A stretch of DNA of 30,057 bases, taken from NCBI GenBank assembly GCA_040753935.1, contig JBFMDF010000001.1:1-30057 (forward strand), in the 5' to 3' direction. This document shows positions 23,336-29,907 of the stretch, in pieces. Positions within the stretch are counted from its first letter, which is position 1; each line of letters begins with the position of its first letter. This DNA comes from Bacteroidota bacterium. GTDB taxonomy: Bacteria; Bacteroidota; Ignavibacteria; UBA10030; UBA8401. The notes below the pieces were generated by a model that worked only from the letters and a program-made list of their open reading frames with translations, was not told where the DNA came from and searched no databases. The translations under genes were made by a program, and so were the position numbers.

Positions 23336-24574
23336 TCAAAACTCCAACACCACGCCATTCTTAATTACCTTCCACACATGATTCACACCGTAATGATACG
23401 GAATGTACCGATAATCCTGAACATCGTAGATAACGACATCGGCTTGTTTGCCGATTTCAATACTGCCGATTTCATCGGATAATCCGAGTGCCGCCGCGCC
23501 GTTGAGAGTTGCAGCGGTAATCGCTTCTTCGGGTGTCATCTTCATCTGCGTGCAGGCAAGTGTCAACATCATCTGCATGGAATAACACATTTGCGTGCCC
23601 GGGTTGAAGTCGGTAGCAATAGCGAGGGGAATCCCTGCATCAATAATTTTTCTTGCCGGTGCGTACGGATGATTGAGAAACAGTGAACAACCGGGTAACA
23701 CCGTTGCAATGGTATTGGAATTTTTTAACGCCGCTATACCTTCGTCGTTTGTTTTTTCAAGATGGTCAACGGATATAGCGTTGTGCTTTGCGCCAAGCTC
23801 CACTGCACCAAAAGCATTCAGTTGATCTGCATGCAGTTTTGGAATTAATCCGAGTCGTTTTGCTTCGAGAATAATTTGTTCGGTAACGTGCAGATCAAAG
23901 TATCCCTTCTCACAAAAGACATCTACAAATGTCGCCAGTTTCTTTTCGGCAATGTACGGCATCATGTAATCGCAGATGCGATCGACATACCCTTGCTTGT
24001 TGTCTTTAAATTCAGGCGGAAAAGCATGCGCTCCGAGAAATGTCGGCACGATGGTTACGTAGTGATCGCGCTTCAGGTCATGAATGACTTCGAGAATTTT
24101 TATTTCTGCTTCGGGTGAAAGTCCATAACCGCTTTTAATTTCCACGGTTGTAGTACCGTACCGCATCATATCGTTCAATCGTCGTTCTGCCAGATGATAT
24201 AATTCTTTTTTTGAAGCTTCACGAGTAGCACGTACGGTAGACAGTATTCCTCCCCCACCTTCCGCTATTTCTTGATACGATTTTCCCTCTGCCCGCAGTG
24301 CAAATTCATGTTCGCGACTGCCGGCAAATACCGTGTGCGTGTGCGAATCGACAAAGCCGGGAAGAACGGTACGGTTTCCCGCGTCAATACTATCATACTC
24401 CTCAGGCGCTGTAACTTCACCATTGTTACCAATCGTTACGACAATTCCATTTTCAATCAATAGCGAAGCGTTGGTCAACACTTCTACTGATCGCATCTCG
24501 CTGCCGCTTTTCACTCGTTTTCCGTGCGAGGCAACGGTCACGAGTTGTCCGATATTCTTAATAAGAAGATTCAT
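23336..24574 (-). CDS. hutI: Imidazolonepropionase
   Basis: PGFVDSHTH, GTTTVEIKSGYGL, TFLGAHA, DVFCE, KLHADQ, VDHLE, ATDFNPG. Confidence 0.97.
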   Translation of the reverse strand: MNLLIKNIGQLVTVASHGKRVKSGSEMRSVEVLTNASLLIENGIVVTIGNNGEVTAPEEYDSIDAGNRTVLPGFVDSHTHTVFAGSREHEFALRAEGKSYQEIAEGGGGILSTVRATREASKKELYHLAERRLNDMMRYGTTTVEIKSGYGLSPEAEIKILEVIHDLKRDHYVTIVPTFLGAHAFPPEFKDNKQGYVDRICDYMMPYIAEKKLATFVDVFCEKGYFDLHVTEQIILEAKRLGLIPKLHADQLNAFGAVELGAKHNAISVDHLEKTNDEGIAALKNSNTIATVLPGCSLFLNHPYAPARKIIDAGIPLAIATDFNPGTQMCYSMQMMLTLACTQMKMTPEEAITAATLNGAAALGLSDEIGSIEIGKQADVVIYDVQDYRYIPYHYGVNHVWKVIKNGVVLEF

Positions 24575-24786
24575 TTGTTGGTAAGAGTCTGTGTGTGTGA
24601 AGTTTTATCGGTCATATCTAAAAATCCTTTACATTCATAGAGTGGAAGTCGGGGATATTTCGGTAACGATGGATCGGTTTTTGATTTTTCACACAAGTGA
24701 AACTGCGATTTGCGATTGGAAGTAACAACGGTGTGGTACGCGCACCGAAGACATACTCCTATTTCTTTTTCTAACCGTGCCGTCAT
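24571..24786 (-). CDS. Small four-Cys putative metal-binding protein
   Basis: 71 aa: CLRC...FHLCEKSKTDPSLPKYPRLPLYECKGF; ATGA overlaps with both neighbours (24783-24786 and 24571-24574). Confidence 0.8.
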   Translation of the reverse strand: MTARLEKEIGVCLRCAYHTVVTSNRKSQFHLCEKSKTDPSLPKYPRLPLYECKGFLDMTDKTSHTQTLTNK

Positions 24787-28193: not shown

Positions 28194-28257
28194 GGCTATT
28201 GGCAAAATGTTATAGTGATTATTTTTTACTGCTATTGTTTTTTTTGTCCGATCACCG

Positions 28258-29907
28258 TTACGTCAACATCGGAATGTTGATATTCCATTGTTTTGCATTG
28301 TCAATAGCGCGTTTATACCCTGCATCGGCGTGACGAATAATTCCCATCCCCGGATCGTACGTCAGTACACGTTCTAATCTGATATCGGCGTCATCGGTAC
28401 CATCGCAGACAATGACCATACCGTTATGAATAGAATTTCCGATACCGACTCCACCGCCGTGATGTACACTAACCCAACTTGCTCCGCCAACAGCATTCAG
28501 CATCGCTCCGAGAATGGGCCAATCGGCTATTGCGTCACTACCATCGTTCATTTTTTCCGTTTCACGATTGGGCGAGGCAACGCTTCCGCAATCCAAATGG
28601 TCTCGCCCAATAACAATCGGTGCTTTCACTTCTTTTTTCCTCACCAAATCGTTGAAAATTTTTCCCATCTTGGCGCGCTCGCCGTAACCAAGCCAGCAAA
28701 TACGCGCAGGTAAACCTTGAAAGGCAACATGCTTCTGTGCCTTTTCGATCCAGTTTTTTAAGAGTGAATTTTCAGGAAATGTTTCAATCACCGCACGGTC
28801 AGTCCGATAAATATCTTCTGGATCGCCGGAGAGCGCCACCCAGCGAAATGGACCTTTACCGTCGCAAAAGAGCGGCCGAATATATTCGGGAACAAAGCCG
28901 GGAATATCGAACGCTTTCTTCACGCCGTACGAAAACGCCTCGCCGCGGATGTTATTGCCGTAATCGAACACTACTTTCCCTTTTTTCTTCAGCAGTAACA
29001 ATCCTTTTACATGTTCTGCAATGGAGGCACGTGCAAGTTCAACATATTTTTTGGGATTCTTTTTTCGCAGTTCGAGCGCTTTTTCATAACTTACCCCTGC
29101 CGGCACATATCCATTAAGCGTATCGTGTGCTGATGTCTGATCGGTGACAATGTCTGGCAGAAATTTTCCACGAGCAATTTTCGGCACAATTTCTGCCGCA
29201 TTGCCGAGCAAACCGACGGAGAGTGGCGTTTTGTTTTCTTTCGCTGTACGAATCATTGTCATCGCTTCGTCAAAGTTGTCGGTCATCTTGTCAAGATATT
29301 TTGTGGCAAGACGCTTTTCAATACGGGTTCGATCAACTTCAACGACAAGACACGCGGCGCCGTTCATTGTAGCGGCGAGCGGCTGAGCGCCCCCCATGCC
29401 GCCGAGTCCGGCGGTAAGAAGAAATTTTCCGGCAAGCGAACCTCCGAAATGCTGACGGGCGGCTTCGGCAAATGTTTCGTATGTTCCCTGCAAAATCCCC
29501 TGCGTGCCGATATAAATCCAACTTCCAGCCGTCATTTGTCCGTACATCGTCAAGCCCAGCGCTTCAAGACGGCGAAATTCATCCCAGGTTGCCCATTTGG
29601 GAACAAGCATCGAATTGGAAATAAGAACACGCGGAGCGTTACGATGAGTTTTAAAGATACCGACAGGTTTTCCGGATTGGACAAGAAGTGTTTCGTCGTT
29701 TTCCAATTTTTTCAGCGCATCAACAATAGTATCGAAACATTTCCAGTTGCGCGCAGCTTTTCCTGTGCCGCCATACACAATCAGATCCTCCGGCTTCTCG
29801 GCAACTTCCGGGTCGAGATTGTTCATCAGCATCCGGAGCGCCGCTTCTTGTACCCATCCCTTAGCGGAAATGTTTGTTCCGCGCGGGGCGCGAATGATAC
29901 GAGGCAT
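28258..29907 (-). CDS. hutU: Urocanate hydratase
   Basis: [63 protein letters not shown]. Confidence 0.99.

Follow-up and report, generated by a model that had tools for sequence, protein, structure and literature searches.

The genes for histidine utilization (hut) are a classic example of catabolic genes under a local repressor and global regulators of nitrogen and carbon. Described hut control involves the HutC repressor or the HutP antiterminator, and the sensor CbrA carries a transporter domain. According to the excerpts of PMC8871633 and PMC8034625, NtrBC and CbrAB act on hut genes from distant loci. Here we describe a different layout, in which the gene for a hybrid phosphorelay sensor kinase lies between hutU (urocanate hydratase) and hutI (imidazolonepropionase) in a 30,057-nucleotide (nt) stretch of DNA from a Bacteroidota bacterium, hereafter called the window. 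The window is the whole of contig C1 (JBFMDF010000001.1) of a metagenome-assembled genome, G000, which comprises 2.59 Mb in 480 contigs and is 93% complete by markers. The placement of the kinase is real, old and maintained, and a private neutral insertion is excluded; we lean towards a functional link of the phosphorelay with the hut operon. The likeness to HutC, HutP, NtrBC and CbrAB control is that a two-component-type protein is associated with histidine utilization. The differences are that the kinase gene sits between hutU and hutI, that HutC (TIGR02018) reaches at most 30.6 bits against a cut-off of 220 in the five genomes checked, G000 included, and that no σ54-type –24/–12 pattern (TGG-N9-TGC) is found upstream of hutU, the whole-window count of this pattern being at chance. 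Unlike CbrA, the window kinase has no transporter domain.

Three other groups of described systems are close to this locus. Hybrid two-component sensors of Bacteroidota are encoded beside the catabolic loci that they control and have their own DNA-binding output. The window kinase resembles them in adjoining catabolic genes within the same phylum-level group, but it ends in a histidine phosphotransfer (Hpt) domain and needs a separate regulator. The second group consists of the "unorthodox" tripartite kinases BarA, TorS and ArcB, which share with the window kinase the succession HisKA–HATPase_c–REC–Hpt on one polypeptide with all phospho-acceptors present. Models of this type are its best NCBIfam matches, although all stay under their equivalog cut-offs (TorS 469.4 vs 676.5, BarA 463.5 vs 890 and ArcB 409.9 vs 838 bits). 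The window kinase differs in having two receivers and a CHASE3 domain instead of their sensors, and in being encoded within a catabolic operon with no regulator gene nearby. Finally, stand-alone Hpt proteins such as Pseudomonas HptB and Caulobacter ChpT serve several hybrid kinases. The likeness here is that one Hpt module stands against many Hpt-less hybrid kinases, in G000 and in its relative G003, and that two further relatives (G004 and G001) have a free 124-residue Hpt gene; the difference is that the Hpt is mostly fused to the kinase and encoded in the hut operon, and that its sharing among kinases is something we infer.

Full-text literature searches returned, in the excerpts that they gave, no description of a CHASE3 or hybrid histidine kinase arrangement in a hut operon. 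Papers on the hut operon and phosphorelays hold none on such an arrangement, to judge by titles and the opening of abstracts, and those on hutU/hutI, sensor kinases and urocanate deal, in their excerpts, with HutC, NtrBC and CbrAB. The hutU–kinase–hutI arrangement is thus apparently undescribed, as an earlier note on this DNA had supposed it might be.

The kinase gene and its junctions

Open reading frame (ORF) translations and Pfam and NCBIfam matches bear out the gene order hutU, kinase, four-cysteine ORF, hutI and the domain layout that the earlier note had proposed (Table 1). HutU scores below the cut-offs of the thiourocanate-type models in NCBIfam. In the kinase, hydrophobic segments near residues 12–42 and 183–211 (hydropathy windows starting at 12–24 and 183–193) flank the CHASE3 domain, which is therefore predicted to lie outside the cytoplasmic membrane. 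A strong PAS stretch at residues 360–471 and a second, PAS_4 stretch are matched in Pfam. The HisKA domain (residues 494–559, PF00512, 79.6 bits) holds H504 in the H-box SHEIRTP, and HATPase_c (residues 606–719, PF02518, 107.5 bits) holds N621 of the N box and the G1 aspartate D653. The acidic, phospho-acceptor and lysine positions of the two receivers are D751/D795/K844 and D893/D936/K989, with D795 and D936 as phospho-acceptors, and the Hpt histidine H1075 lies within HKLRG, an HxxKG-type site.

Seventeen orthologues were aligned, the kinase of G020 having been dropped by a motif filter. H504, N621, D653, D751, D795, K844, D893, D936, K989 and H1075 are invariant in all 17, and the orthologues range from 892 to 1,276 residues with no internal stops. 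Median identity to the window kinase is 72% in the catalytic core (residues 481–725), 70% in REC2, 62% in REC1, 61% in PAS, 32% in Hpt and 31% in CHASE3, the last two being the most divergent parts. The domain content of the sensor part also varies: the 892-residue kinase of G001 is without PAS, and most of the longer orthologues (~1,260–1,275 residues) appear to carry an extra, third PAS-length segment. Judged by its sequence, the kinase is intact and probably a functional phosphorelay sensor.

Sequence reading and a hairpin search reproduce what had earlier been recorded of the junctions, namely a hutU–kinase gap of 64 nt without a terminator-like hairpin and ATGA overlaps at both the kinase/small-ORF and small-ORF/hutI junctions. 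The gap is A-rich and practically unfolded, its best fold reaching only –2.7 kcal/mol. The consensus of the Bacteroidota-type –7 promoter motif is TAnnTTTG; it is not found on the minus strand of the gap, and its only minus-strand match upstream of hutU is TATATTTG, a weak hint of a hutU promoter element, the whole-window matches being fewer than in shuffled sequence. A scan for σ70-type promoters likewise gave fewer matches in the window than in shuffles, the σ70 consensus being uninformative for this phylum. The hairpin 3′ of hutI is a possible end of the transcription unit, and a gap of 194 nt separates this region from the next gene. No Rfam family reaches its gathering score anywhere in the window.

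The locus is not an assembly artefact, because two contigs from separate other studies, 66,601 and 19,886 bases long, each cover the whole of positions 23200–30057, with 183–185 differing letters. The sequencing runs that hold the stretch carry the habitat labels sediment, hot spring and subsurface, and no RNA run is listed among them.

Table 1 Coordinates of the hut operon and of the kinase domains in the window.
Feature	Position	Strand	Basis or remark
TATATTTG, match to Bacteroidota-type –7 promoter motif	30034-30041	-	TAnnTTTG scan; ~127 nt upstream of hutU start
hutU, urocanate hydratase, 549 residues	28258-29907	-	TIGR01228 948.8 bits, cut-off 375; three urocanase Pfam domains
hutU–kinase intergenic gap	28194-28257	-	64 nt to ATG at 28193; 52 nt to in-frame TTG at 28205
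Hybrid phosphorelay sensor kinase, 1,136 residues	24783-28193	-	Pfam; transmembrane segment 1 (TM1), CHASE3, transmembrane segment 2 (TM2), two PAS, HisKA, HATPase_c, REC, REC, Hpt
CHASE3 sensor domain, residues 47-175	27669-28055	-	PF05227 39.6 bits, cut-off 28
HisKA + HATPase_c catalytic core, residues 494-719	26037-26714	-	Pfam; HATPase_c 26037-26378
Two receiver domains	25194-25958	-	PF00072; REC1 25632-25958, REC2 25194-25532
Hpt domain, residues 1049-1113	24849-25049	-	PF01627 34.5 bits, cut-off 24.6
Four-cysteine ORF, 71 residues	24571-24786	-	Sequence; no Pfam or NCBIfam family
hutI, imidazolonepropionase, 412 residues	23336-24574	-	TIGR01224 477.4 bits, cut-off 298
Perfect 9-bp hairpin, no T run	23305-23326	-	Hairpin search; 10 nt past hutI stop

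Conservation of the arrangement in two families

The family of the window genome comprises 55 species genomes, of which 54 have hutI and 52 have hutU. A search with kinase residues 1–231 (TM1–CHASE3–TM2; E ≤ 1e-10) matched 26 of the 55, that is, 4/5 genomes of genus g1 (window genome included), 18/20 of g4 and 2/2 each of g10 and g12. In 25 of these 26 genomes hutU immediately precedes the match on one contig and strand; in the remaining one (G075) the locus is broken across contigs. There are three misses within the clade: G078 (58% complete), G073 (76% complete) and G004. G073 has an Hpt-bearing open frame of 760 residues just upstream of hutI on the same contig, and we regard this frame as truncated where the contig ends.

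Mapping by tblastn gives the order hutU–kinase–small ORF–hutI in the 20 regions fetched, with full-length kinases of 1,138–1,271 residues and 48–58% identity. The TonB-dependent receptor, thiamine diphosphokinase, PnuC and another hybrid kinase that flank the operon are likewise conserved in relatives, and the genes upstream of hutU vary among genomes. With start codons assigned by a simple rule, the hutU–kinase gap is at most 31 nt in 13 of 19 loci, including an overlap in G032 (gap –4). The kinase stop and the small-ORF start overlap by 4 nt in 9 of the 12 loci in which both ends are clear.

All 20 kinase- or Hpt-bearing rows of the family fall into one clade of a HutU+HutI tree (41 rows, quick IQ-TREE), with a Shimodaira–Hasegawa-like approximate likelihood-ratio test (SH-aLRT) value of 100. 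G004, the congener without the kinase, is nested inside this clade as the sister of G001. It is a tree of the hut genes, not of the species, and sixteen of the 55 family genomes, whose loci were not fetched, are left out of it.

The association extends to a second family. In a class-wide sample the sensor end is matched in 27 of 301 genomes at E ≤ 1e-8. The 86 genomes of family f8 were searched with the sensor end of one of its members, G163, and positions were compared by coordinate with hutU, which is present in 78 of the 86. A related sensor is found in 15, directly after hutU in ten of them (seven genera) and elsewhere in five. The order RidA-like gene, hutU, kinase, small ORF, hutI was verified in G163 (L171), where hutU and the kinase overlap by 4 nt, and in G297 (L175:7247-16046). 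In G263 the kinase lies 12 kb from hutU, yet still upstream of the small ORF and hutI. Sensor matches in three further families (L165, L168 and L170) have no hutU within 1.5 kb. Over the two families the adjacency of kinase and hutU spans 23–58% sequence identity. In a 23-row tree the f8 rows are joined by a kinase-less f8 genome and stand apart from the first family, which implies that the hut genes were not simply transferred between the kinase-bearing groups and that two deep lineages have kept the association. An old arrangement with many losses is one possibility, and a double entry of the kinase into the same slot is the other.

The earlier note had asked whether the position is conserved, and had named a neutral insertion as the alternative. 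The kinase is at hutU in 25 of the 55 family genomes and in 10 of the 86 of the second family, and of the in-clade genomes examined all but one have it in this place. Because the kinase sits between hut genes in dozens of relatives, its placement is maintained and not accidental, and intact frames and invariant catalytic residues across genera make a neutral insertion unlikely.

A proposed signalling role in the hut operon and its competitors

We propose that the kinase has long been a member of a hutU–kinase–(four-cysteine miniprotein)–hutI transcription unit in part of the order, Ignavibacteria-labelled genomes included. Its transcription would start at the hutU promoter, and its translation would be coupled to that of the genes that follow. 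With a shared hutU promoter, the level of the kinase and of its Hpt outlet would track that of the two middle enzymes of histidine degradation. The CHASE3 domain would read a signal outside the cytoplasmic membrane and the PAS domains possibly a cytoplasmic one. Autophosphorylation at H504 would be followed by transfer to receiver residue D795 or D936, then to H1075 of the Hpt domain and finally to a response regulator whose gene lies elsewhere. The most probable function of the kinase would be to couple the catabolism of histidine and peptides to a regulatory output, perhaps regulation of the hut genes, perhaps a broader response to nutrients. Where the Hpt of the kinase is the only one in the genome, the kinase would probably also be an outlet for other hybrid kinases. 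An in-operon phosphorelay kinase across many genera points to a different wiring of the hut genes in a poorly studied and mostly uncultured lineage, and connects the breakdown of amino acids with signal transduction in a concrete way that can be tested. It also suggests that one Hpt module may act for many of the hybrid kinases of such genomes.

Several observations weigh against this proposal. We infer the direction of phosphate flow, the ligand and the target, and co-transcription from the spacing of the genes alone. In one locus only, that of G007, the hutU–kinase gap (112 nt) contains a strong hairpin with a T run. A sensor domain that evolves this fast does not imply a fixed ligand such as urocanate. 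About half of the family has hutU and hutI without the kinase: none of 26 genomes from the eight other genera gave a match to the sensor end, nearly all of these genomes have both hut genes, and the hutU–hutI intervals sampled hold no kinase. G004 lost the kinase, and the hutU–hutI interval is permissive in relatives. Most kinase-bearing genomes hold 2–8 Hpt domains, so that a role as a hub would not be general. In G354 (L172:8970-13709, +) a related CHASE3 kinase lies away from hut genes with a REC–GerE (LuxR-type) response regulator 103 nt upstream on the same strand, and this regulator, the only one seen beside a related kinase, has no clear orthologue in G000 or G003, where the best matches are 27–29% identical. 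G000 itself is fragmented, with its 2.59 Mb in 480 contigs compared to 3.5–3.8 Mb in congeners.

Some of these points would be explained if the kinase were a functional passenger, a working sensor for a task unrelated to histidine that sits in a permissive, well-expressed hutU–hutI slot and is inherited with it. The interval is an insertion hot spot in relatives, where several unrelated genes occupy it: ketopantoate-reductase-like, PD-(D/E)XK, glyoxalase-family, methyltransferase and GH130-like genes, and a SpoIIE phosphatase with a DUF5700 gene (L043:10175-10552, L044:8860-9786, L046:7432-10507, L050:10178-11134, L038:8086-9393 and L173:4571-6679). The kinase is missing from about half of the first family and from most of the second while hutU and hutI are retained, its loss in G004 is clean, that of G263 is far from hutU, and the G354 kinase stands beside a LuxR-type regulator of its own. 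However, none of the other inserts was seen in more than three of the loci examined, the ketopantoate-reductase-like gene being shared by two families, whereas the kinase follows hutU in 25 + 10 genomes of two families. Its tight spacing and its overlaps with both neighbours are also conserved, and the Hpt stayed in place after the kinase was lost. We therefore regard a passenger as a serious but rather doubtful account of the locus.

A second alternative is that selection keeps the Hpt outlet, shared by hybrid kinases that lack an Hpt of their own, and that the sensor-kinase part is secondary and replaceable. G004, a congener that is 98% complete, has hutU, 13 nt, a 124-residue Hpt ORF (L033:10116-10490, –; 30.5 bits, cut-off 24.6), the small ORF and hutI, with no kinase; G001 has the kinase with its own Hpt and in addition an orthologous free 124-residue Hpt gene (L031:10129-10503, –; 36.4 bits). 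PF01627 gives one match each in G000, G003 and G072, always inside the hut kinase, none to twelve in the other family genomes and 1–8 in the other kinase-bearing ones. A lineage-specific Hpt profile agrees with PF01627 at E ≤ 0.1, a second match of this profile in G072 being the tail of the same hut kinase gene on the next contig; divergent Hpt proteins can, however, escape profile searches, which tempers the single counts. Hybrid kinases were counted by cross-tabulating the matches to receiver and HATPase_c models according to contig, strand and length of the open frame. For G003, which is 100% complete in 9 contigs, this gives ~16 kinases that have a C-terminal receiver, with an Hpt only in the hut kinase and ~15 others without one, and G000 has at least seven other hybrid kinases without Hpt. 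Other hybrid kinases may thus have their outlet in the hut kinase or, in G004, in the free Hpt, and the variable domain content of the sensor part fits a replaceable front end. Against this, the catalytic core is the best conserved part of the kinase and the Hpt among the least, most kinase-bearing genomes have other Hpt domains, and the location within the hut operon is left unexplained. We consider this alternative unlikely.

More speculative still, and in our view improbable, is that in some genomes the hut operon encodes the only Hpt of the cell, so that transcription from hutU to hutI would gate the output of ~15 hybrid kinases. Amino-acid catabolism would then set the gain of a phosphorelay network, and the bare Hpt kept in G004 after loss of the kinase would be the footprint of that dependence.

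A chimeric assembly or a decaying gene, for which one could cite the 480 contigs of the metagenome-assembled genome and the loss of the kinase in one congener, has a negligible probability and is refuted by the independent contigs of two other studies, the same gene order in dozens of genomes, and the open frame with invariant catalytic residues.

The four-cysteine miniprotein, the hut pathway and the surroundings

The locus also draws attention to a widespread, unnamed family of four-cysteine miniproteins. The window protein has its cysteines at positions 12, 15, 32 and 52. In a 19-sequence alignment (A1), residues G10, C12, C15, F29, C32, K43, Y44, P45, P48 and C52 are invariant, and the sequences conform to the signature GLCxxC ... 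FHLC ... KYPxxP ... C. The protein is found in 35 of 61 relatives, and in all 30 loci fetched its ORF is a neighbour of hutU, of hutI or of the kinase. Kinase-less relatives have the order hutU–small ORF–hutI, which implies that the small ORF was in this place before the kinase; in G020 and G024 the kinase is present and the small ORF absent. From the four cysteines, our guess would be a small metal-binding protein.

A profile search retrieved 1,550 proteins; among the 120 matches listed there is no name beyond "hypothetical" and no Pfam domain. The window protein itself has no Pfam family, a Pfam scan at E up to 1 giving scattered single-member matches only, and a protein atlas holds only unnamed clusters. 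A search with the single sequence gave no candidates, and an AlphaFold model, with a predicted local distance difference test score (pLDDT) of 76.5, has no Foldseek match in the PDB at E ≤ 0.001. Named records among the matches listed come from Ignavibacteria, Acidobacteriota and Actinomycetota, and the genome loci (L051–L130) include Acidobacteriota, Actinomycetota, Gemmatimonadota, Chloroflexota and others. Among the best 80 genome loci, 68 have neither of the genes hutU and hutI within 6 kb, which indicates that the hut link of the protein is specific to this order. Outside the order the same-strand neighbours are heterogeneous and none is constant.

None of hutH, hutG and hutC lies in the window, as the earlier note had stated, and ftcD was found neither there nor in the rest of the G000 assembly. 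A wider search for hutH, hutG and hutC, which that note had proposed, succeeded in part. hutH was not found in G000, most likely reflecting the incomplete assembly; 51 of the 55 family genomes have it, and in every case in which the positions allow a comparison it is unlinked to hutU, lying on another contig or at a great distance, as in G035 (hutH 3.22 Mb, hutU 1.85 Mb). A hutG-like gene lies on contig C4 of G000, at 219.6 bits just under the cut-off of 229. For HutC nothing above the cut-off was obtained in the five genomes mentioned. In two loci of the second family, those of G297 and G263 (L173:1175-10123), hutI is followed by ftcD and fchA, and the family of the window genome seems to use the unlinked hutG-like gene in their place.

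Two side observations concern genes near hutU in other genomes. In the second family, a REC–HisKA–HATPase protein and an NtrC-type σ54 activator are encoded ~1.6 kb upstream of hutU (L175:3635-6172, +, in G297), and similar matches occur in L050 (G059). They are found with or without the embedded kinase and are candidates for hut regulators in that family. In G004, a gene for a pyridoxal phosphate-dependent decarboxylase (Pyridoxal_deC; L033:12244-13695, –) lies directly upstream of hutU and could encode an amino-acid decarboxylase linked to histidine metabolism.

Response regulators are not absent from the window, in contrast to what had been noted earlier: a PhoB-like gene at 6181-6861 stands beside its own kinase (3747-6176), far from the hut genes. 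A second hybrid kinase of 1,001 residues (15560-18565, +) with PAS, HisKA, HATPase and REC domains and no Hpt lies 5 kb from the hut genes; it is syntenic in relatives and is counted among the seven or more Hpt-less kinases of G000. Between this kinase and the hut genes, a block with a TonB-dependent receptor, a thiamine diphosphokinase and a PnuC-type transporter (18554-22130, –) is conserved beside the hut genes in three genera and looks like a vitamin-salvage unit; no thiamine pyrophosphate (TPP) riboswitch reaches the Rfam gathering score in the window. A predicted lipoprotein of 237 residues (22428-23141, –), with a cysteine after a signal-like N-terminus and no family match, is kept downstream of hutI in two genera. 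The enolase ORF (9834-11267, –) is listed with a TTG start, and as the enolase model match begins ~50 codons in, the true start is probably further in. Finally, a 5′-nucleotidase/UshA-like protein (1093-2967, –) has a C-terminal type IX secretion sorting domain, which fits a Bacteroidota-related placement.

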